From positions 76,783 to 140,782 of the forward strand of contig JACEUU010000002.1 in assembly GCA_024998755.1 (NCBI GenBank): a DNA stretch of 64,000 bases, written 5' to 3'. Positions 4,398-64,000 of the stretch are shown piece after piece. Numbering within the stretch: the first letter of the stretch is position 1; each line of letters opens with the position of its first letter. The stretch is from Vampirovibrio sp. (GTDB taxonomy: Bacteria > Cyanobacteriota > Vampirovibrionia > Vampirovibrionales > JAJTHC01). The translations under genes were made by a program, and so were the position numbers. Under the pieces are notes generated by a model. That model was not told where the DNA came from. It made no database searches and saw only the letters and a program-made list of their open reading frames with translations.

Positions 4398-4494
4398 GAC
4401 CCATATTAGTATCTGACACAAAAATTAACGTTTAAGTTTGTTAGTTCTCTTGGTTATTTATAGCTTCGAACCATATGCAGTTGGAGATAGTCTC

Positions 4495-4690
4495 GTGCGA
4501 GCGTAGCGAAGCAGAGCATTTAGGAAGCCTCTAGCTTCCGCTCAAGCCTATTTTCAACGTGCTAGCCAACCAATCAACCAGTTGTTCCCCTGGGGATTAT
4601 TAAGGGGGCGGCGAGCAGCCCTTTAATTTTGCGGGGGGTTTGGGGGGTACTCAAATAGTACCCCCCATGAAGCCCTAGCCCGAAGCGGTA
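4495..4690. repeat. Composite intergenic repeat (family 4) with poly-G/C blocks. It is an inverted copy of 19700-19925.
   Basis: gcgagcgtagcgaagcagagcatttaggaagcctctagcttccgctcaagcctattttcaacgtgc matches the reverse complement of 19845-19915 at about 85% identity. Both copies carry gggattattaaggggg-like G-runs. Confidence 0.45.
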
Positions 4691-7234: not shown

Positions 7235-7380
7235 ATACCATTTTCAAATTGGAATAGCGTTAGATGGATACTAGGCACTGTCAAGTAAAAAACCGCAGGC
7301 GTACACAGACGACCATTGAGGATTTTTTGCTTGACGGTAACAACGTAGACGCTGACGATAGTTCTATTTAAAATTGGTAT
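7235..7380. repeat. MITE-like element (family 1, copy A), ~146 bp with ~17-bp terminal inverted repeats (ataccattttcaaat.. / ..atttaaaattggtat) and an internal 13-bp-stem hairpin.
   Basis: About 90% identical to 37585-37731. It sits immediately 5' of the pentapeptide-repeat gene. Confidence 0.6.
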
Positions 7381-7406
7381 CAGTTGCTTTGGAGTTTTTT
7401 CCTCTT

Positions 7407-8018
7407 ATGTCTACAAACCCCATGTCGAATGCTCAAGTATTTACCCCCGAAGCGTTGGCTAATTTACCGTTGAAAGACCAGTTGTTTCGGTTGATTTTAG
7501 AACAACCGGATGGGGTTACCCGCTTTAATGCGTGGCGACAATCTACTGGGTTTCATGTGTTAGATTTATCGGAGCTTGATTTTACGGGCTGTAATCTTTC
7601 GGGTATTAATTTTTCTAATTGCAATTTGCTCAATTGCCAGTTTGAAGAAACCTTGTTGCATGAAGCTAAATTGGTTTTTGCGGTGTTGACGGGGTCGTTT
7701 TGTTTTAATGCTCAATTTTTTCAGGCTTCTATGGAAGAGGCTGATTTTAAGAATTGTGATTTAACAGGGGCTATTTTAACGGGGGTAGATGCGACGGAAG
7801 CCAGTTTTGAAGGGGCTACCTTGGTTGATGTTCAGGCTCAAGATGCGGACTTTACCTTGGCAACGTTTAAAAATTCAACGGTTCGGGATGTTGATTTTAC
7901 GGGGGCTATTTTGAAGCAGGCAAATTTCAAGGAAGCTACCTGCGTTGAATATTTGCAACTAGAAACCGCCATCATGGATGATACTACCCAATGGCCCGCA
8001 GGGTTTATTGCTCGGTAA
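7407..8018 (+). CDS. Pentapeptide-repeat protein.
   Basis: Tandem A(D/N)LxG-type pentapeptides (CNLSGINFSNCNLLNCQFEET...ADFKNCDLTGAILTGVDATEASFEGATL...). GGAG lies 12 nt upstream of the ATG at 7407; the track's TTG at 7374 lies inside the MITE. Confidence 0.65.
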   Translation: MSTNPMSNAQVFTPEALANLPLKDQLFRLILEQPDGVTRFNAWRQSTGFHVLDLSELDFTGCNLSGINFSNCNLLNCQFEETLLHEAKLVFAVLTGSFCFNAQFFQASMEEADFKNCDLTGAILTGVDATEASFEGATLVDVQAQDADFTLATFKNSTVRDVDFTGAILKQANFKEATCVEYLQLETAIMDDTTQWPAGFIAR

Positions 8019-16899: not shown

Positions 16900-17217
16900 T
16901 TGCGGTTTTCAACCGCCGTTGCCCCCTGCTTCGCACTCAACCCCGCCTTTCCCTCACCCTAGCCCTCTCCCAGAGGGAGAGGGGACGGTAAACCTAGGTA
17001 AACGGCGGGTTTTCGCCCTATGGGTGGGGCAACTAACGCTTTATTGCCCCCTCTCCCGCTGGGAGAGGGCTGGGGTGAGGGTTTTTAGAAACGGGAGGGT
17101 TTGAAACCCTTCCCTACACAATAGCCTAAATCTCGTCATGTTGAGCGTAGTCGAAACATCCCCCCAGACGCTAAGGAGATTCCTCGGCTACGCTCGGAAT
17201 GACAAAACACGCTATTT
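16900..17217. repeat. Cluster of family-2 GC-rich palindromic repeats, including the gtcatgttgagcg...gaatgacaaaacacgctattt module.
   Basis: ccctctccc-aga-gggagaggg and ccctctcccgctgggagagggctggggtgagggttttt match 2437-2478. The terminal module matches 28697-28773 and 54476-54567. Confidence 0.5.
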
Positions 17218-17314
17218 CTACTTGAATCCGCCTATAAAAATACCGATTAATCGGTTGTTATCTTTGTAATCCTAGTTAAAAGTTCTTGTAATTCTGCTTG
17301 ACGGTTCGACATTA

Positions 17315-18476
17315 TGAAGTTACGGAAAAAGGGCAAGGTAAAATAGAAGGGACATTATTCCACCTCTCATAGGATACCCCACCCCCATGACTACCTTTGC
17401 CGACATCCAAATTCAACAAGCCACCCCCACTCACAAATTCCTAGAGGAAATGAACCAAACCCTACCATGGCAACTATTTGAAACCATCCTCAAAACACAC
17501 ATCCACCACAAACCCAACGGCAGACCACCCTACAAACGCCTACTACTGCTCAAAATGAACCTCCTCAAAATATGGTTCAATCTCTCCTATGAACAAACCG
17601 AATTTCAATGCCACGACAGACTCTCCTTCCGAAAGTTTCTCGGCTTCTCCTTAGAATCCCCCATCCCTGAAGCCACGACACTCGAAAACTTCCAACACGA
17701 ACTGCAAAACACCCCAGCCCAAGAAGCCCTTTTCTTAGCCTTAGACACCTTCTTCCAAGAGAACAACCTCATTCTTAAAGAAGGCAACTTGGTAGATGCC
17801 ACCTTTATTAAAGCCAATAGCAAACAGAGAAAAAAGCCTGAAGACCAGAGCGACCCTGATGCCACTTATGGCTACAAAGGCTTTGGTTACAGTGCCACGG
17901 TTAATGTGGATGCTAAAAGCAAGTTGATTCGCAAGGTGGTTGTTACTGGTGCCAATGTGCATGACAGTCAGAGTTTACTGCCTGTACTGGTGGGCGATGA
18001 GCAGACTGTTGGTGCGGATAGTGGGTATGTGGGTAAGGAGAAGGATTTGAAGGCGTTGGGGATACAGCCGAGGATTATTAAGCGTCGTGTTCGGGGTAAG
18101 CAGCATGAACCAACGCCTGAGTTGACGGCTTCGCAGAAGCGGTTTAATGGGTTGGTTTCTAAGGTTCGGGCAAGAGTGGAGCATGTGTTTGCGGGTTGGA
18201 AGACGGTGTTTAAGAAGGTTCGTGTGTCTTGTCGTGGGTTAGTGCGTGTTTCTGCGGAGATTTTGGGCTTGGCATTTGGGTATAATTGTCGTCGGTATGG
18301 TTTTTTGGTGAGGAGGGGGGTAGGTTTTAGTGGATTCTTGTATGGTTTTTAGGTAATTATGATCCGAAAAGAGTGGAAACAAGGGGTATTGTTCTGTTTT
18401 TTGAGCATTTTTGGTTGAATTTTATTAAAAAACACTCACTACTCCCACCTGCACACCCTTATTCCGTAACTTCATT
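17315..18476 (+). mobile_element. IS5-family insertion sequence, copy 1 (~1.16 kb) with TIR tgaagttacgg...ccgtaacttca.
   Basis: The whole transposase is duplicated at 19961-21122 (inverted) and again at 63446 onward. The flanks tta|IS|tta suggest a 3-bp target-site duplication. Confidence 0.8.
17387..18352 (+). CDS. IS5-family DDE transposase (321 aa).
   Basis: DDE_Tnp_1-like organisation. Identical protein copies are at 20085-21050 (-) and 63518 onward (+). Confidence 0.8.
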   Translation: MTTFADIQIQQATPTHKFLEEMNQTLPWQLFETILKTHIHHKPNGRPPYKRLLLLKMNLLKIWFNLSYEQTEFQCHDRLSFRKFLGFSLESPIPEATTLENFQHELQNTPAQEALFLALDTFFQENNLILKEGNLVDATFIKANSKQRKKPEDQSDPDATYGYKGFGYSATVNVDAKSKLIRKVVVTGANVHDSQSLLPVLVGDEQTVGADSGYVGKEKDLKALGIQPRIIKRRVRGKQHEPTPELTASQKRFNGLVSKVRARVEHVFAGWKTVFKKVRVSCRGLVRVSAEILGLAFGYNCRRYGFLVRRGVGFSGFLYGF

Positions 18477-18499
18477 AATAAAAAGGGCAAGGTTTTTCA

Positions 18500-19270
18500 A
18501 TGGAAAAATATCCAGTAAAAGGCGAAGTGGATAGAATTAGTTTTTTAGATCAATTAACCACTGAAGAACTCAGTCTATTTCATCAAAATGGCACCCTGTT
18601 AACCATGAAAAAAAACGAACCGCTTGATTTGGATGACCCCAGCCACAAAAACAGTGCTTTTTTAGTAACTGAAGGCTTTGTTAAATTAACCACACTAAAC
18701 CTTGAAGGTAAAAAATTTTCGCTCAGCTTATTGCAAACAGGAGATTTGTCTGATTGGTTCTACAACCAAACTGGTGAAGAAAAGCCCTTCTTACAAACTG
18801 GGCATTGTAAGTTTTTAGAATCTATTACTGGCGTTTCGCAAGTCTTACGAATGAATGAAACGGTCTTTCAAGACCTGTTAGATAAAAAGCCCTCCCTCTA
18901 TGTAACCTTATGACGCGTAATGCAATGTAGAGTTTACACCGTGCAACGCCAATTAAGCGATGTTGTTTTTAAAGATGTACACGCCAGAATAGCCCAAACC
19001 TTGTTAGATATGGTGTTCCATTATGCGGAACTTTGCCCTTATGCCTTTGGCGTTGTAAGAGATGTTTGCCTAACCCACCAAGAAATTTCTGAATTGATTG
19101 GGGCTTCAAGACCTGTAACCTCATTAGCGTTGAACGATTTTAGTAGGGCTGATTTAGTTCATAAACACGACCGTTTTTTATGTCTGCAAAATATACCTGG
19201 TTTAGAAATAGTTGCTCAAGAAGGGTATCAAGCCCTTAAAAAAATAAGTAGTGCCTTGGTTGTTAGCTAG
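18500..19270 (+). pseudogene. Crp/Fnr-family transcriptional regulator interrupted by an in-frame TGA at 18914-18916 (cNMP-binding half 18500-18913, HTH half 18920-19270).
   Basis: The two ORFs are in the same frame, 6 nt apart. The first has the beta-roll cNMP-binding fold; the second has the Crp-type HTH (HQEISELIGASRPVTS). TGA is a genuine stop elsewhere in this window (48863-48865). Confidence 0.6.
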
Positions 19271-19388
19271 CTAACAGATATGTGTGAAACAATCTGTTAC
19301 GATAAGTTTAACGAGTTCGGAAAAAAGTATTTTTTCAGTTCGTTTGTTTGTTATCCCTCTTAGTTTCTACTTTTGGAGTATTGAATTC

Positions 19389-19508
19389 ATGAATCTTTCT
19401 ATCGCTAAATTGGCATTAGTTGCCGCTGTTATGTTACAAGGTGCAAGTTTCGCTAACCCTGCTAACACAGATATGTTCCAAATGACCGAAGCCACCAATA
19501 TGTCTTAA
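19389..19508 (+). CDS. Small secreted peptide: a Sec signal peptide plus 18 aa. It continues in frame past a TAA stop into a Cys/Lys-rich segment ending at 19631.
   Basis: GGAG lies 11 nt upstream of the ATG. MNLSIAKLALVAAVMLQGASFA is a classic signal peptide. The in-frame continuation is SNTLIANKKCGSGSCGGKETTKKCAAKKCAAKKCGASEKK*, followed by a terminator hairpin. Confidence 0.45.
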   Translation: MNLSIAKLALVAAVMLQGASFANPANTDMFQMTEATNMS

Positions 19509-19649
19509 TCAAACACACTCATTGCTAACAAAAAATGTGGTTCTGGCTCTTGTGGTGGTAAAGAAACAACCAAGAAATGTGCGGCTAAAAAGTGTGCAGC
19601 TAAAAAATGTGGTGCTTCTGAAAAGAAATAATCGAACCCCTTTCGTTAC

Positions 19650-19690
19650 AGGCGGCTCTGCAAAAGAGCCGTCTGTTTTAAAGATTATTG
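19650..19690 (+). terminator. Rho-independent terminator candidate after the Cys-rich frame.
   Basis: aggcggctct-gcaaa-agagccgtct hairpin followed by gtttta. Confidence 0.45.
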
Positions 19691-19699
19691 CTTCGGACT

Positions 19700-19925
19700 A
19701 TGATGGATGCGTTAGGGGGACTGGCGTCAGCCCCCCCTAACAACCCCCCACCGCTTAAGGGGAAAGGTGGCATTAGCATGCGTCCTCCCCCCTTAAGAAT
19801 CCCCCCTCCCTACCGCTAAGGGCTGACTTGTTTACACGCACGTTGAAAACAGGCTTGACCGGAAGCTAGAAGCTCCCTAATTGGTCTGCTTCACTACGTT
19901 CGCACCAGCCTATTTCCAACTGGGT
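19700..19925. repeat. Family-4 composite repeat; inverted copy of 4495-4690.
   Basis: See the 4495-4690 entry. It is rich in G6-7 and C6-7 tracts. Confidence 0.45.
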
Positions 19926-19960
19926 ATGATTTAAAACTAAAAATCATAAGAAACAGTTCA

Positions 19961-21122
19961 AATGAAGTTACGGAATAAGGGTGTGCAGGTGGGAGTAGTG
20001 AGTGTTTTTTAATAAAATTCAACCAAAAATGCTCAAAAAACAGAACAATACCCCTTGTTTCCACTCTTTTCGGATCATAATTACCTAAAAACCATACAAG
20101 AATCCACTAAAACCTACCCCCCTCCTCACCAAAAAACCATACCGACGACAATTATACCCAAATGCCAAGCCCAAAATCTCCGCAGAAACACGCACTAACC
20201 CACGACAAGACACACGAACCTTCTTAAACACCGTCTTCCAACCCGCAAACACATGCTCCACTCTTGCCCGAACCTTAGAAACCAACCCATTAAACCGCTT
20301 CTGCGAAGCCGTCAACTCAGGCGTTGGTTCATGCTGCTTACCCCGAACACGACGCTTAATAATCCTCGGCTGTATCCCCAACGCCTTCAAATCCTTCTCC
20401 TTACCCACATACCCACTATCCGCACCAACAGTCTGCTCATCGCCCACCAGTACAGGCAGTAAACTCTGACTGTCATGCACATTGGCACCAGTAACAACCA
20501 CCTTGCGAATCAACTTGCTTTTAGCATCCACATTAACCGTGGCACTGTAACCAAAGCCTTTGTAGCCATAAGTGGCATCAGGGTCGCTCTGGTCTTCAGG
20601 CTTTTTTCTCTGTTTGCTATTGGCTTTAATAAAGGTGGCATCTACCAAGTTGCCTTCTTTAAGAATGAGGTTGTTCTCTTGGAAGAAGGTGTCTAAGGCT
20701 AAGAAAAGGGCTTCTTGGGCTGGGGTGTTTTGCAGTTCGTGTTGGAAGTTTTCGAGTGTCGTGGCTTCAGGGATGGGGGATTCTAAGGAGAAGCCGAGAA
20801 ACTTTCGGAAGGAGAGTCTGTCGTGGCATTGAAATTCGGTTTGTTCATAGGAGAGATTGAACCATATTTTGAGGAGGTTCATTTTGAGCAGTAGTAGGCG
20901 TTTGTAGGGTGGTCTGCCGTTGGGTTTGTGGTGGATGTGTGTTTTGAGGATGGTTTCAAATAGTTGCCATGGTAGGGTTTGGTTCATTTCCTCTAGGAAT
21001 TTGTGAGTGGGGGTGGCTTGTTGAATTTGGATGTCGGCAAAGGTAGTCATGGGGGTGGGGTATCCTATGAGAGGTGGAATAATGTCCCTTCTATTTTACC
21101 TTGCCCTTTTTCCGTAACTTCA
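19961..21122 (-). mobile_element. IS5-family insertion sequence, copy 2, inverted relative to copy 1.
   Basis: Reverse complement of copy 1 end to end. Its flanking triplets do not match each other (ata vs ttt). Confidence 0.8.
20085..21050 (-). CDS. IS5-family DDE transposase (copy 2).
   Basis: Identical 321-aa product. Confidence 0.8.
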   Translation of the reverse strand: MTTFADIQIQQATPTHKFLEEMNQTLPWQLFETILKTHIHHKPNGRPPYKRLLLLKMNLLKIWFNLSYEQTEFQCHDRLSFRKFLGFSLESPIPEATTLENFQHELQNTPAQEALFLALDTFFQENNLILKEGNLVDATFIKANSKQRKKPEDQSDPDATYGYKGFGYSATVNVDAKSKLIRKVVVTGANVHDSQSLLPVLVGDEQTVGADSGYVGKEKDLKALGIQPRIIKRRVRGKQHEPTPELTASQKRFNGLVSKVRARVEHVFAGWKTVFKKVRVSCRGLVRVSAEILGLAFGYNCRRYGFLVRRGVGFSGFLYGF

Positions 21123-21138
21123 TATAAGGAACTCAATG

Positions 21139-21524
21139 AGATGCAATCATTATTGCGTGTTACTTTTGCTGGTTTTCAGCCAGCAGTTTTGGGTACCAAG
21201 CATCAGGCTACTGGCGTTCAGCAACCCAGTGCTGTTGGGCAGTTAGCTCAAACACAAACCACAGATGTTTTAGGTGCTATGCCACACTACCGTCCATTAC
21301 CTATAGGGGTACGTTCTGGTAATAATGTAGACAAACTAGTTAGGCAGGAACTAGCTGAACTTGGAAAAGATATTGAAGCTGGTGAACGAAAAATCGCGCA
21401 ACTTGAAGAAGCTGTACAGAAAGATCATCTATCAGAGGAGCTTATTACTCGGGTAGAAGAGGTGATAGCAGACTTACAAGAAGAATTGGGAACAAAGAAG
21501 GTACAAAAGGACAGACTAAGTTAA
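21139..21524 (+). CDS. Hypothetical protein, paralog 1 of a pair that shares a near-identical 60-aa N-terminal module. Its C-terminus is coiled-coil-like.
   Basis: Nt 21139-21320 are ~97% identical to 21858-22040. The track ORF start at 21003 lies inside IS copy 2, so the real start is taken as the ATG at 21139. Confidence 0.5.
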
Positions 21525-21857
21525 CTGGTTCCTAACCAAATTGTGGAACGTTCATTACTGCTAGCTTTTACCGAAAATATTAGCTTTAAATCATATACAG
21601 TTGAAGATAGACTGGTACAAGAGTAGCGAATCAGACCAAAATGAATTCATAGGGGCAGATGCAATCCACCCCCTACAGTTGGTTAAATTTTTAAGCTACT
21701 AGACCTCATGAACACTGCTTACTTGAATTCGCTTTGAGGATTTTTATTTACAAAAAATTATTTTACTGCTAAAATAAATTTTTAATATGACTTTACTTAA
21801 CTAATGATTCGCTTTTAACTTAATCTTTCTATAAAAAATGATGTAAGGGACTAAGTA

Positions 21858-22460
21858 ATGCAATCATTATCGCATGTTACTTTTGCTGGTTTTCAGCCAG
21901 CAGTTTTGGGTACCAAGCATCAGGCTACTGGCGTTCAGCAACCCAGTGCTGTTGGGCAGTTAGCTCAAACACAAACCACAGATGTTTTAGGTGCCATGCC
22001 CCACTACCGTCCATTACCGATAGGGGTACGTTCTGGTACTGGAGACATTGAAAAACTACTGGCACATCTTCATCAAGAAATAAACGAGAAAACTATTGAA
22101 GGCCTGCTGGCAGATCTTGAAAAAGCAGAACGATTAAAAGATGTTACTGCATCAATGAAAAAAATAGACACTGTTGTGGAGAATTTGTTGGATCGTGCAT
22201 TAGCATCTACACCCGATGTTTTTATGCTTAATAGATTAGAGGCAATAGCAAAATTAGTTGATGAACTGAAACAGAACCAAGCAAATCGGGAAGCTACCAC
22301 TGCATCAATCCAAAAGCTCAACACAGTTGTAACCGTTTTTTTAAGCCATATAGAAGCATGTAATGAACGTTACTATGCCAGTTACGATACTTTAACTGTT
22401 AATGCACTAACTATGTTAAAAGAATTAGCAGCAGAATTAGCTGGCATTTTAAAAAAATAA
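21858..22460 (+). CDS. Hypothetical protein, paralog 2: the same N-terminal 60 aa with a different all-helical C-terminal domain.
   Basis: MQSLSHVTFAGFQPAVLGTKHQATGVQQPSAVGQLAQTQTTDVLGAMPHYRPLPIGVRSG is shared with 21139-21524. Confidence 0.5.
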   Translation: MQSLSHVTFAGFQPAVLGTKHQATGVQQPSAVGQLAQTQTTDVLGAMPHYRPLPIGVRSGTGDIEKLLAHLHQEINEKTIEGLLADLEKAERLKDVTASMKKIDTVVENLLDRALASTPDVFMLNRLEAIAKLVDELKQNQANREATTASIQKLNTVVTVFLSHIEACNERYYASYDTLTVNALTMLKELAAELAGILKK

Positions 22461-37584: not shown

Positions 37585-37731
37585 AATACCATTTTCAAAT
37601 AGGAATAGCGTTAGATGGATACTAGGCACTGGCAAGTAAAAAACCGCAGGCGTACACAGACGTACGTTGAGGATTTTTTGCTTGACTGTAACAACGTAGA
37701 CGCTGACGATATTTCTATTTGAAAATGGTAT
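37585..37731. repeat. MITE-like element (family 1, copy B) with perfect 17-bp TIRs (ataccattttcaaatag).
   Basis: About 90% identical to 7235-7380. It sits immediately 5' of paralog B. Confidence 0.6.
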
Positions 37732-37760: not shown

Positions 37761-38441
37761 ATGCCCATCAATCCGTTCATAAATAATTTATCTTCAGCTT
37801 TTTCAGCACACCCACCCACACCAAGGAAAAGTAGTCCTCGGGAAGAACTAGACGACGACTTTGCTACTGCCAATGATGATAACAATGGTGATACGGTAGA
37901 GTTTTCAAATAAATCTGCCAGTAAAATTTCAAAAAAAATAGACAAGCTTCAAGAAGCCCAAGATAACGCTGATGAATTGCAAGAACTAAAAGAACAACAG
38001 CAATTGCTTCAGCAGTTGGATAAAGAAGAAATTCACGCCGCTAAAGTGAAAGCGTCATTTTGGGGGTCTATTCCTTATATCGGTCCGTTTATTGGTATTT
38101 TTAGCAACGTCTTTGTTTCGCCTGAAAGCAATGTGGCTAACAGAACGGATGTTCGGTTAAATGGCAGAGACGAAGACGACGCCTTGAAACAAGAAAAGCG
38201 AATTAAAACGGCTAAAATTAAAGCAGCCTTAGTAACTGCCGTTCCGCAAGTAATTGGGTTTACCTTAACCACTATTGGTGGGTTTATGACTAAACACGCT
38301 GAAGAAAACAAGAAAAGTACCTCGTTAGCAAAGGCTCTGATGTTAGCTGGAACGATTATAGGTACCACCTGTGGTTTAACAACCTTAGGCTATTGGTTAG
38401 GCGAAAAACCAGCGTCTAAAGACTTCAACAAAACTTTGTAG
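37761..38441 (+). CDS. Hypothetical protein, paralog B of 36752-37519.
   Basis: See paralog A; it has the MITE upstream. Confidence 0.5.
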   Translation: MPINPFINNLSSAFSAHPPTPRKSSPREELDDDFATANDDNNGDTVEFSNKSASKISKKIDKLQEAQDNADELQELKEQQQLLQQLDKEEIHAAKVKASFWGSIPYIGPFIGIFSNVFVSPESNVANRTDVRLNGRDEDDALKQEKRIKTAKIKAALVTAVPQVIGFTLTTIGGFMTKHAEENKKSTSLAKALMLAGTIIGTTCGLTTLGYWLGEKPASKDFNKTL

Positions 38442-60952: not shown

Positions 60953-61169
60953 GGCAGATTGTTTCTAGTGGGGCTTCATACCTACCCAGTTTACCCTAAA
61001 CCAATAGGATGTTCAATGTTGAACCGTAGTACTTAAGTGTTTAGAAATATGTGCCAATTGTAGTTCTACAAGTGGTGTAAAAGCACCTATAACTTTTGGG
61101 TAAGTAGAGTCATTGTAGTTTTGCATTGCAACTCTTAACCCTGTAGCTTTAGAGCCTAATTTTTCTATT

Positions 61170-61313
61170 AGACCTCTTGCATGACTCGATATCTGGGGCA
61201 TCTTCGTTGTCATTTACGGTACTCGAATTCTTATGTACTTCCGTGTACACCTCAAATTCTGCGTTCCTCATTCCTAGAATCTGCACCCACCTATTGAGTC
61301 ATGCAAGAGGTCT
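61170..61313. repeat. MITE-like element (family 3), an inverted copy of 47481-47668.
   Basis: TIR agacctcttgcatgact / agtcatgcaagaggtct. Its interior matches the reverse complement of 47600-47660. Confidence 0.5.
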
Positions 61314-61651
61314 ATTGTTAAACAAAACGGAGAAATATTAACACCAGAAATAGCCAATGCTTCTTCAGGGCCTTTCAACAGTTTGTTCAAACAGTCTGGG
61401 CTTGAAAGACTCAACTTTTTTGCTGCGTTATTTAATACTTCAATATCAGTAGAATTAACGAGCCATGCCACCATTTCTTAGGTTATGAAAGGTTTGAGGA
61501 AAGGGGTCTTCTTTTTTATTGTTGACTTAAACGAGGGTGGAACACTAACAGAAGGGCGAATAGAACATAATATAACCCTAATATAAAAGTGAATTTTTAA
61601 CGTTTGTTGTTTGAATTTAGCTTAAACATCCCCACATAACCATGGTATTTA

Positions 61652-62521
61652 TTAAACTGCAACAGACCCCACCACAATGCCAAGCGGATGCAACTGCACA
61701 CATAAAAACGATTGAAACCCTGCTTCAATAGCTGGTGTTAGTGCCATGCCATAAGCTGAACACGCTTCTTCCAACAAGACACGATAAGACTTTTTTTCAC
61801 CATGCGACTGTAACGCCAAACTTAAAAATTGCTGCACCACCCCTGAAACTTTGAAAAATCGGCAAGAAAAATCTGAATCTCTGTAAACCCATAGAATTAA
61901 AGGGTCTGCAGCGGCTGCCCATTGTGTTGGCAAATCCGTTTCAGCTTCTTTACACTGCTTTAGTTGCTCCACTATTAAATCAACCGCATAAAAACTAGAA
62001 AAGCTAGAAGAAGCTGGGTTTAAAACAGGACTTGCCGTCTCTAAATCATCTGTTAAACAAGGATTCTTTAAAATTTGAGCTTCGGCTTTCGAAATGGAGG
62101 TGGTGTCTTTTAGCAGCTGGGCTTCCAATTGTTCATAGGTTGCTAAATCTTCCAAAAAAGGAAAGGCTTCAGTCAAAGCTTCCTGTTCCGATAAAAAAGA
62201 AGGGAACGCCTTTACCACATCAAACAACTGATAAGATTGCGGCGGATGTGCCTGCAAATAAGCTGAAACCAACCCATCCCATCGGTCAGAAACGAATTGA
62301 TAAGTGTAGGGGTAAATGGCTTCTAGGGCTTCTTGATGGTTGGCGAAAACCATCCACTGGTATTGTTTTAATCGGTCTTCTTCTAGTTGAAAAAAGGCTT
62401 CAACTAACGGCGTTTTAGGCTGGTTCTTTAGGGCTTCAAACGAAGAAATTTCATGCGAAAAAGGCTGAAAGGTAATTTCTACAAATAGGGCTTGAAAGTC
62501 TTTTAGTGAAGGTGTATTCAT
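61652..62521 (-). CDS. DUF2063-family protein (MbnC / BufC / TglI-like partner of DUF692 enzymes).
   Basis: N-terminal region YQWMVFANHQEALEAIYPYTYQFVSDRWDGLVSAYLQAHPPQSYQL matches the DUF2063 signature (xVYRNNxxxSLxxALxxxYPxTxxLxGxxxFxxLAxAYxxAHP). Confidence 0.65.
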   Translation of the reverse strand: MNTPSLKDFQALFVEITFQPFSHEISSFEALKNQPKTPLVEAFFQLEEDRLKQYQWMVFANHQEALEAIYPYTYQFVSDRWDGLVSAYLQAHPPQSYQLFDVVKAFPSFLSEQEALTEAFPFLEDLATYEQLEAQLLKDTTSISKAEAQILKNPCLTDDLETASPVLNPASSSFSSFYAVDLIVEQLKQCKEAETDLPTQWAAAADPLILWVYRDSDFSCRFFKVSGVVQQFLSLALQSHGEKKSYRVLLEEACSAYGMALTPAIEAGFQSFLCVQLHPLGIVVGSVAV

Positions 62522-63405
62522 GACTTACCTCCAACTTTGCTTTTAACTGAAGCTAAAGCCACTGTTTTAACCTGTTGTAACTCCGTCATTAATGTTTTAA
62601 ACGGGGGAATGTTTGTATCTCGTTCTAATAAAACGCCTTTTAAATTAGGGCACTGCGGATAAATAGCCCCTAGTAAGGCAAAAACCTCATCGCAAATGGG
62701 TTCGCCGTGGGTGTCAATTAAAAACGATTCGGTGGCTAAATGCCCTGCAATATGAATTTCCACGACACGTTCTAGGGGTAAGCCAGCAACAAAATCTTCG
62801 ACATTTTCCTGATGATTTTGGCAGTTCACGAAAATATTATTCACATCAAGCAGAATGCCACAATCGGCGGTTTCAACAATGGTTCGCATAAAATCCGCTT
62901 CGGTATACTGGTTGATACTGGGAAAACGGGCGTAGGTTGAGGCATTTTCAATTAAAAACGGACGCTGAAATTTATCTTGTAAAACTTTGATTTTATCTGC
63001 ACAAACTTGAACGGCTTCACGGGTGAAGGGTAGGGGGATTAAATCATTTAAATACCGCCCATTAACCGAGCTAAAACTGAGGTGGTCGCTAAACCACAGT
63101 GGATTGATTGTTTCAAATAATGCGGTTAATTCAGCTAAATAAGTAGGGTTAATAGGGTCTACACTACCAAGAGAAAGACCGACACCATGCGAAGTAATGG
63201 GGTAGCCTTTGGCAATAAGGGCTTCTAGGTTTTTGGCGGTTTGCCCGCCTTTACCCATAAAATTTTCTGGGATGAGTTCAATCCATTCCAGCAAGGTAGG
63301 TGGTTGGGCGGGGGGTAGAATATCGTCATAATACTCATTTTGCATGCCAATACCAAACCCGATATTGGGGATATTTTTAATAGATTTAAAGAAGGGTGTA
63401 GACAT
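62518..63405 (-). CDS. DUF692-family TIM-barrel di-iron enzyme (MbnB / BufB / TglH-like RiPP maturase).
   Basis: WIELIPENFMGKGG...HGVGLSLGS.DP...WFSDHLSF......IPLPFTREAV...LIENASTY are all hallmark DUF692 blocks. It overlaps the DUF2063 gene by 4 nt (ATGA). Confidence 0.7.
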   Translation of the reverse strand: MSTPFFKSIKNIPNIGFGIGMQNEYYDDILPPAQPPTLLEWIELIPENFMGKGGQTAKNLEALIAKGYPITSHGVGLSLGSVDPINPTYLAELTALFETINPLWFSDHLSFSSVNGRYLNDLIPLPFTREAVQVCADKIKVLQDKFQRPFLIENASTYARFPSINQYTEADFMRTIVETADCGILLDVNNIFVNCQNHQENVEDFVAGLPLERVVEIHIAGHLATESFLIDTHGEPICDEVFALLGAIYPQCPNLKGVLLERDTNIPPFKTLMTELQQVKTVALASVKSKVGGKS

Positions 63406-63445
63406 AAGTTTTTAGTGGCTTCAACTATTTAGGGAGTTTTATATT

Positions 63446-64000
63446 TGAAGTTACGGAAAAAGGGCAAGGTAAAATAGAAGGGACATTATTCCACCTCTCA
63501 TAGGATACCCCACCCCCATGACTACCTTTGCCGACATCCAAATTCAACAAGCCACCCCCACTCACAAATTCCTAGAGGAAATGAACCAAACCCTACCATG
63601 GCAACTATTTGAAACCATCCTCAAAACACACATCCACCACAAACCCAACGGCAGACCACCCTACAAACGCCTACTACTGCTCAAAATGAACCTCCTCAAA
63701 ATATGGTTCAATCTCTCCTATGAACAAACCGAATTTCAATGCCACGACAGACTCTCCTTCCGAAAGTTTCTCGGCTTCTCCTTAGAATCCCCCATCCCTG
63801 AAGCCACGACACTCGAAAACTTCCAACACGAACTGCAAAACACCCCAGCCCAAGAAGCCCTTTTCTTAGCCTTAGACACCTTCTTCCAAGAGAACAACCT
63901 CATTCTTAAAGAAGGCAACTTGGTAGATGCCACCTTTATTAAAGCCAATAGCAAACAGAGAAAAAAGCCTGAAGACCAGAGCGACCCTGATGCCACTTAT
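63446..64000 (+). mobile_element. IS5-family insertion sequence, copy 3, truncated by the window end. Its left end lies 41 bp upstream of the DUF692 gene start.
   Basis: Nt 63446-64000 are identical to 17315-17869. Confidence 0.8.
63518..64000 (+). CDS. IS5-family DDE transposase (copy 3, 3'-partial).
   Basis: Identical N-terminal 161 aa. Confidence 0.75.
   Translation, partial: MTTFADIQIQQATPTHKFLEEMNQTLPWQLFETILKTHIHHKPNGRPPYKRLLLLKMNLLKIWFNLSYEQTEFQCHDRLSFRKFLGFSLESPIPEATTLENFQHELQNTPAQEALFLALDTFFQENNLILKEGNLVDATFIKANSKQRKKPEDQSDPDATY

Follow-up and report, generated by a model that had tools for sequence, protein, structure and literature searches.

Likely recent inactivation of a captophorin-type precursor gene in a Vampirovibrio genome

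Captophorins, a class unified only recently, are copper-associated 5-thiooxazole peptides made by MNIO-PME1 enzyme pairs (PMC13097082). One of their three precursor groups is defined by a Lys-Cys-containing 5-mer repeat (PMC13097082). HvfA has 95 aa, with a 24-residue signal peptide whose cleavage was demonstrated experimentally and a C-x4-C pair; the Cys of its six Lys-Cys repeats are substrates of HvfB and HvfC (PMC11252979). The oxazolin modification has since been revised to a 5-thiooxazole (PMC13097082; bioRxiv 10.64898/2026.07.17.739211), and Ala after the Cys is tolerated, by FonBC (PMC13097082). A survey of MNIO clusters also reported, upstream of such enzymes, hundreds of unclassified open reading frames (ORFs) that encode a signal peptide and Cys residues (PMC12452194). 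Here we analyse a stretch of 64,000 nucleotides from a Vampirovibrio sp. genome (contig JACEUU010000002.1; hereafter the window), in which a small, stop-interrupted ORF very likely represents the recently inactivated precursor gene of a captophorin-type operon for a metallophore of the RiPP kind (peptides that are synthesized ribosomally and then modified post-translationally), in the HvfA/oxazolin-like Lys-Cys repeat group.

The locus is closest in design to HvfA/oxazolin of nontypeable Haemophilus influenzae, with fontiphorin and gonophorin as further points of comparison (PMC11252979, PMC13097082). A Sec signal peptide is followed by C-G-x-G-x-C and then by repeats with a Cys at each fifth residue, Lys before it and a small residue after it. 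Like HvfA, the intact orthologue P0001 is 95 aa long and has eight Cys, two plus six, and relatives of the window carry the precursor directly upstream of an MNIO gene and a DUF2063 partner gene, with a DoxX/HvfX-like gene nearby. Unlike HvfA, the window family repeats A-K-K-C-A instead of E-G-K-C-G, occurs in Vampirovibrio-like (Melainabacteria) hosts instead of Pseudomonadota and has a Crp-family regulator in its cluster, and the window copy itself is pseudogenised and parted from the enzyme genes.

Bufferins are a second point of reference. Buf1 (DUF2282) and Buf2 (PMC11626156, PMC12452194) share with the window family a signal peptide, Cys, closely related MNIO and DUF2063 pairs and DoxX genes in their clusters, and the top score of the window MNIO is on the BufB model (288 bits). 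They differ from it in that the window peptide gives no DUF2282 match and its core consists of repeats, where theirs is a folded domain with four or six Cys. At E up to 1, neither the repaired window peptide nor the orthologue P0003 had any Pfam match, and P0001 and P0002 matched only low-complexity or unrelated Pfam families, not DUF2282 (PF10048). A distant Buf1-type locus, the sole return of a second metagenome scan, has an MNIO 36% identical to that of the window. The initial annotation had called the precursor bufferin-type; a signal-peptide-bearing, Cys-rich MNIO substrate fits what we find, with the qualification that the nearest peptides are of the HvfA/oxazolin Lys-Cys repeat type and not DUF2282 bufferins.

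Compared by description, the 'CxxxxC' group and the unclassified signal-peptide ORFs with 1–18 Cys (PMC12452194) likewise combine a signal peptide and C-x4-C with MNIO/DUF2063/DoxX clusters. The 'CxxxxC' group is often linked to Lactamase_B_2 genes (PMC12452194), unlike the related loci L001, L008 and L010, in which we saw none. The literature we searched held no report linking Vampirovibrio or Melainabacteria with these MNIO/DUF2063 enzymes and no description of the Crp-containing cluster layout, and the KKCAA motif and Vampirovibrio were not found in one supplementary text file of PMC13097082.

An interrupted precursor gene and its intact orthologues

The reading frame begins like an ordinary gene and continues past its first stop. 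GGAG at 19375–19378 precedes an ATG at 19389; the first 39 codons read MNLSIAKLALVAAVMLQGASFANPANTDMFQMTEATNMS and close at a TAA (19506–19508), after which 40 further codons in the same frame read SNTLIANKKCGSGSCGGKETTKKCAAKKCAAKKCGASEKK up to a second TAA (19629–19631). This is the layout that the initial annotation had described, down to the five Cys of the core, which fall in CGSGSC, two KKCAA units and one KKCGA unit and include the C-x4-C spacing. Downstream of the first TAA there is no in-frame ATG, GTG or TTG. By inspection, the predicted signal peptide has a Lys at position 7 (K7), the hydrophobic stretch LALVAAVMLQGA and S-F-A preceding N; its region is nearly unchanged in three orthologues, and all aligned family members have a hydrophobic N-terminus of the same type. 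An open extension of 40 codons has a chance probability of about 0.10 at the stop-codon frequency of the window, so ORF length is no proof by itself and homology carries the case for one gene.

Homology joins the two halves. In a search of 5.8 billion proteins, the joined 80-aa reading matched uninterrupted proteins across both halves (E=2e-37, 1e-30 and 1e-27). These intact orthologues, P0001, P0002 and P0003, have 95, 91 and 102 residues, and they answer the call of the initial annotation for an uninterrupted orthologue in relatives; in all three the Cys-rich segment is present and in frame. The same search also returned the truncated ORF of the window from another assembly. In the nucleotide alignment, TCA (Ser) faces the window TAA in all three orthologous loci, which makes the TAA, on this alignment, a single C-to-A nonsense substitution in a real gene. 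The window copy further lacks 45 nt, equal to three KKCAx repeats, relative to L001, and over the aligned codons its coding sequence shares about 90% nucleotide identity with the L001 orthologue, which is intact.

The damage appears to be young. Relative to L001, the ratio of nonsynonymous to synonymous substitution (dN/dS) is 0.044 for the regulator gene upstream, 0.125 for the precursor, 0.089 for the MNIO gene and 0.158 for the partner gene, with dS of 0.3–0.6 (0.38–0.54 for precursor and regulator). Such low ratios in every gene, both pseudogenes included, indicate that the nonsense mutations are recent relative to the divergence of the lineages, in line with the recent nonsense mutation that the initial annotation had offered as one reading of the TAA.

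The peptide belongs to a known class. Judged from its sequence, the window gene is a pseudogenised member of the MNIO-modified, Sec-exported Lys-Cys-repeat metallophore precursors (HvfA/oxazolin, captophorins), and its family is a divergent form found in Vampirovibrio-like bacteria. The joined peptide aligned with the NCBIfam HvfA model NF050188 over residues 9–80 (E=6.6e-7; 29.9 bits, cut-off 95), and the orthologues scored 14–23 bits on the same model. A family profile built from the three orthologues and searched against 1.84 billion representative proteins gave 15 matches at E <=0.001, most of them with a signal peptide, F-x-x-[TS]-E, a near-invariant KCGxGxCG and variable Lys-Cys or His-Lys-Cys repeats. 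Among these matches is a canonical HvfA-family protein, P0157 (106.5 bits on NF050188 and 70.1 bits on the KCGExKCG_twice domain model NF050137), whose first KCGEGKCGG aligns with KCGSGSCGG of the window family; another member of the profile family, P0150, scored 22.6 bits on NF050137. The model match and the retrieval of a bona fide HvfA-family protein together bear out the earlier proposal of a RiPP precursor for MNIO enzymes.

Two features usual in captophorins are found in the relatives and are lost in the window. The Lys-Cys 5-mer with a small residue after Cys is retained (KKCAA, KKCAA and KKCGA; six units in P0001). Adjacency to the MNIO and DUF2063 partner genes, seen in L001 and L002, has given way to a distance of 43 kb and opposite strands, and the frame through the Cys-rich core is interrupted. 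A six-frame scan of the window for a second Cys-rich stretch returned out-of-frame noise only, and a scan of metagenomes with the precursor alignment gave no match.

A conserved hairpin follows the gene. It spans 19648–19676 with 12 bp and is followed by TTTT; in a comparison of four loci, 4 of the 12 pairs show compensatory changes. This conservation fits a terminator or attenuator that would set the ratio of precursor to enzyme. Of the hairpin and T-run that had been noted after the ORF, the hairpin stands and the T-run amounts to 4 T, versus TTTTTT in relatives; homology stops at 19679 and the extra sequence starts there. A simple terminator scan did not call the hairpin at the precursor end, owing to the shortening of the T-run at this breakpoint, and promoter and terminator scans around the precursor and the junction between the insertion sequence (IS) and the MNIO gene found nothing above shuffle expectation. 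Separately, a 13-nt block, GCTAnCTrACAGA (window 19266–19278), is common to five loci (window, L001, L005, L008 and L010) at the end of the crp gene, and the position of the crp stop codon relative to it varies between loci; the block may be a regulatory site for the precursor promoter.

Operon layout in relatives and the remaining genes of the window

Relatives preserve the operon that the window has lost. L001 and L002, about 88–90% identical to the window in nucleotides, share the order DoxX (minus strand), Crp-family regulator (256 aa), precursor (95 aa), MNIO (295 aa), DUF2063 partner (287 aa), a 235-aa ORF, TsaE, TsaB and Cu-oxidase_4, with a hairpin terminator between precursor and MNIO. 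In L001, L002 and L004 the precursor lies immediately upstream of a called MNIO gene, followed in L004 by a cut downstream ORF, and L005 has the same precursor-MNIO order by alignment. The MNIO pair in relatives thus sits beside an intact orthologous precursor and not beside an unrelated one, which had been named as a finding that would tell against a displaced precursor.

The layout extends to distant loci. L008 and L010 keep DoxX (minus strand), Crp, precursor, MNIO and partner in that order. A Crp-family gene occupies the position upstream of the precursor in L001, L002, L008 and L010, and L005 has a cut homologous ORF there. Because the same layout recurs in the distant L008 and L010, the Crp-family regulator is, by these comparisons, a conserved part of this cluster type, and it is probably the dedicated regulator of the cluster. 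The DoxX protein of L001 scores 63.8 bits on the HvfX family model (cut-off 80). At L008 3466–3888 the public gene call has the strand wrong (147 aa, minus); what the plus strand encodes there, directly upstream of MNIO, is a precursor of 140 aa that comprises a signal peptide, KCGAGACGG and seven KDGAHKCGG repeats. Two scans of a genome collection, one with the window MNIO and one with an MNIO alignment, found no relative; the nearest named relatives of the MNIO are 47–52% identical and come from Vampirovibrionales and Melainabacteria genomes.

Both enzyme genes of the window are full length. The MNIO protein scores 302 bits on PF05114 (cut-off 25), matches NCBI protein MCS6266311.1, from a Vampirovibrio sp. 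metagenome-assembled genome, without a difference, shares 93% amino-acid identity with its L001 counterpart and has 3BWW as its nearest solved structure (E=7e-44). The partner scores 47 bits on PF09836, for the N-terminal DUF2063 domain (cut-off 27.2), and 25.8 bits on PF22106, for the NGO1945-like C-terminal domain, slightly under the cut-off of 27. Only 40 nt (63406–63445) separate the MNIO start codon from the left end of an IS copy, so expression of MNIO and partner must rely on a promoter in, or created by, the IS end; a consensus promoter scan of this interval and the IS end found none. Beyond the partner gene, the roughly 700 nt before TsaE (60953–61651) hold no ORF of at least 90 aa, and no similarity was found there to the 235-aa ORF at the same position in L001.

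The regulator side is damaged as well. The Crp/Fnr-family gene next to the precursor carries an in-frame TGA where L001 has TTA (Leu), and IS copy 1 has left it no more than about 20 nt of native upstream sequence. A tblastn search of the window with the L001 neighbours (DoxX, tRNA synthetase, the 235-aa hypothetical protein and others) found none of them, which makes IS copy 1 a second synteny break.

Rearrangement, decay and alternative explanations

The breakpoints lie at copies of one insertion sequence, probably of the IS5 family. Its transposase scores 233.6 bits on NF033581 (cut-off 140), its terminal inverted repeats are TGAAGTTACGGAA, and against plasmid records the transposase reaches just about 34% identity to IS5-group elements. 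Three copies bracket the precursor locus and abut the MNIO gene 43 kb off, where the initial annotation had placed them. By BLAST, L001 5089–6331 corresponds to window 18480–19679, and L001 6346–8135 corresponds to window 63425–61635 in reverse, the reversed match continuing to 55110. Homology breaks at a 14-nt gap (L001 6331–6346) in the spacer that leads from the terminator to the ribosome-binding region of MNIO, and it resumes inverted beside IS copy 3, 43.7 kb away. On the MNIO side, IS copy 3 begins after 20 nt of diverged spacer, and on the precursor side the break is separated from IS copy 2 by 281 nt of extra sequence. This geometry fits the earlier suggestion that, were copies 2 and 3 to recombine, precursor, IS, MNIO and partner would come to lie on a single strand.

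The 281-nt insert has relatives of its own. A dispersed repeat family (80–83% identity) comprises 19680–19960, 4456–4562, 21580–21639 and L001 1–184. The copy at 19680–19960 contains C- and G-tract-rich sequence (about 19710–19830), and dispersed-repeat copies flank IS copy 2 on both sides in opposite orientation.

We propose a stepwise decay of an operon that was once whole. In intact relatives, by analogy with characterised systems, the MNIO-partner complex would act in the cytoplasm, where every unit of Lys, Cys and a small residue would have its Cys turned into a copper-binding 5-thiooxazole, and the modified peptide would be exported by Sec, lose its signal peptide and bind Cu(I). In this genome, as sequence and synteny show, an IS5-family element and 281 nt of extra sequence were inserted in the short spacer between terminator and MNIO gene. 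Recombination with an inverted copy would have flipped about 42 kb, as assembled, so that MNIO and partner now lie 43 kb off on the other strand, and another IS copy took the upstream region of the regulator together with its DoxX link. Single-base nonsense mutations turned a TCA of the precursor into TAA and a TTA of the regulator into TGA, and three core repeats were lost. Only a Cys-free 39-residue product is now possible, so the pathway is very probably non-functional in this strain, with its enzyme genes still full length.

The process resembles ordinary IS-mediated operon disruption or inversion, with identical IS5-family copies at both breakpoints and nonsense mutations in stranded genes; all that sets it apart is the nature of the stranded gene, a RiPP precursor. 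This is ordinary operon decay and no new kind of system, and it leaves the understanding of the class unchanged. The locus preserves a stepwise record of how a metallophore operon comes apart, through IS insertion in a spacer, rearrangement, and nonsense mutations in precursor and regulator. A displaced, stop-interrupted small ORF could be recognised as a RiPP precursor by sequence logic alone. The family extends the Lys-Cys-repeat, MNIO-modified metallophore class modestly to Vampirovibrio-like (Melainabacteria) genomes with a different repeat unit. For annotation, a 39-aa "hypothetical protein" becomes a pseudogene, and the MNIO and partner become a pair without an adjoining cognate precursor.

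Several explanations compete over the arrangement of the genes. The one of most weight, though still unlikely, holds that the 42-kb inversion is unreal or one of two coexisting isomers, and that the true order on one strand is precursor, 281 nt, one IS, MNIO and partner. A single minus-orientation IS between precursor and MNIO would yield exactly the junctions seen at 19960/19961 and 63445/63446, and the IS copies are identical over 1,164 nt. The target-site duplications can be read both ways. With element ends taken as GAAG...CTTC, ATTT is common to the flank of copy 2 that faces the precursor and the flank of copy 3 that faces MNIO, as the 4-bp target duplication of one insertion would be, and copy 1 has none; with ends taken as TGAAG...CTTCA, copy 1 is flanked by TTA/TTA and the match between the flanks of copies 2 and 3 shrinks to 2 nt. 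GC skew changes sign, with +0.052 left of copy 1 and -0.027 in the segment from copy 2 to copy 3, and agrees weakly with a flip that is very recent or an artefact. Against a collinear order stand the inverted arrangement within the contig as assembled, apparently 696 kb long, and the second synteny break at copy 1, by which rearrangement at IS sites does occur in this genome or its assembly. All four junctions between IS and unique sequence would be the same with or without the inversion, since recombination would fall inside identical 1.16-kb copies; contig-level data therefore cannot separate a real inversion, a coexisting isomer and an assembly choice. The verdict of a pseudogene is the same in each case. 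It is very improbable, by comparison, that copies 1 and 2 formed a composite transposon which carried the regulator-precursor fragment away from the operon: two identical inverted copies do bracket a cargo of 1,484 bp, but their outer flanks show no clear target duplication, and transposition leaves unexplained the third copy at the other side of the break, 20 nt from the resumed homology upstream of MNIO.

Other explanations would spare the gene. We regard it as highly improbable that the TAA is a sequencing or consensus error and the precursor intact in the organism. One base does separate the stop from the orthologous codon, and the flanking sequence bears the mark of strong purifying selection. 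Yet L003, a 1,500-bp scaffold of another ENA metagenome assembly made separately, shows 100% identity with window 18422–19921, both the precursor TAA and the regulator TGA included, the 74-aa truncated ORF is on record on two contigs, and two stop-creating substitution errors less than 600 nt apart would be unusual. The contig collection that has the truncated ORF holds no exact record of the window MNIO protein, which makes L003 probably an independent assembly of the locus, though the underlying samples may be related. We give still less credence to a TAA that is read through or recoded, with a full-length precursor modified in trans by the distant MNIO and partner. Some RiPP systems encode precursors at a distance from their enzymes; here the frame beyond the TAA is open and the enzyme genes are intact. 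Stand-alone precursor genes have been reported for the class (PMC12452194). The orthologues, however, have a plain Ser codon at this position, other long ORFs of the window are open under the standard bacterial code, and in the regulator next to it another stop, TGA, stands in place of a Leu codon, which points to decay and not to recoding. A TAA followed by T is also a strong terminator context in bacteria. Of the readings that the initial annotation had left side by side for this codon, sequencing error and readthrough are therefore highly improbable. An alternative genetic code was considered and rejected, as one stop stands for Ser and the other for Leu, and the standard code leaves the other long ORFs open. 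Finally, we consider it improbable that Vampirovibrio-like bacteria carry a distinct, undescribed captophorin branch in which, in this strain with its natural knock-out of precursor and regulator, the still-intact MNIO pair is kept for another substrate elsewhere or the 17-residue exported remnant is functional. Such a branch may be marked by Crp regulator linkage, one invariant KCGxGxCG anchor and lineage-variable single Lys-Cys repeats, and the function of the remnant might lie with the conserved F-x-x-T-E segment that it retains.

Recent inactivation of a captophorin-type precursor remains our preferred explanation, and the following points weigh against it. The window peptide and its orthologues score 14–30 bits on the HvfA model, far under the curated cut-off of 95, and give no match to the domain model NF050137 (cut-off 19.5 bits). 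The enzymes fall below equivalog cut-offs, the MNIO with 288 versus 310 bits for BufB and 257 versus 360 bits for HvfB, and the partner with 74 versus 142 bits for HvfC. Chemistry, export and copper binding of the window family are carried over from characterised relatives. The target-site duplications of the IS copies give two incompatible readings, and the order and orientation of the 42-kb segment hinge on how the assembly resolved three identical 1.16-kb repeats. Our view is that of a 64-kb window, and an intact second precursor may exist elsewhere in the genome.

Other features of the window

The features discussed above are collected in Table 1, and a few further repeats and ORFs were seen in the same stretch.

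Table 1. Coordinates of the precursor locus, enzyme genes and insertion sequences in the window
Feature	Position	Strand	Remarks
IS5-family insertion sequence, copy 1	17313–18476	+	Synteny break on DoxX side
Crp/Fnr-family regulator pseudogene, in-frame TGA at 18911–18913	18500–19270	+	L001 has TTA (Leu) at the TGA
HvfA-like (captophorin-type) RiPP precursor pseudogene	19389–19631	+	Signal peptide, F-x-x-T-E region, KCGSGSCGG, KKCAx repeats
Predicted Sec signal peptide, 22 codons, cleavage after SFA	19389–19454	+	Sequence inspection
Premature TAA, codon 40; Ser TCA in orthologues	19506–19508	+	Nucleotide alignment; same base in scaffold L003
Untranslated core remnant with five Cys, without three KKCAx repeats (45 nt) versus L001	19509–19628	+	
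Putative terminator or attenuator hairpin (12 bp) and shortened T-run, between precursor and former MNIO position	19648–19679	+	Covariation
281 nt missing from the orthologous spacer, partly dispersed repeat, between terminator and IS copy 2	19680–19960		
IS5-family insertion sequence, copy 2	19961–21124	-	100% identical to copy 1
Intact DUF2063/HvfC-type partner (PME1) gene	61652–62521	-	PF09836 47 bits, PF22106 25.8 bits
Intact MNIO (DUF692, BufB/HvfB-like) maturase gene, parted from precursor	62518–63405	-	PF05114 302 bits
IS5-family insertion sequence, copy 3, cut by window end	63446–64000	+	Left end 40 nt upstream of MNIO start codon

Just left of IS copy 1, ARAGORN called a 101-nt tRNA-Ser(GCT) at 17019–17119. 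The Rfam tRNA model scored it under the gathering score and the overlapping ORFs are proline- and glycine-rich, which makes the call doubtful. On the far side of IS copy 2, two hypothetical ORFs (21003–21524 and 21858–22460), neither with a Pfam match, share a 5' portion of 181 nt at 97% identity (21141–21321 and 21858–22038), equivalent to about 60 shared N-terminal residues; the upstream part of the former overlaps the end of the IS copy. Elsewhere, a non-coding repeat of 146 nt (94% identity; 7235–7380 and 37586–37731), without an Rfam match, lies directly upstream of ORFs 7374–8018 and 37761–38441; it may serve both as promoter or leader, or it may be a small mobile element.

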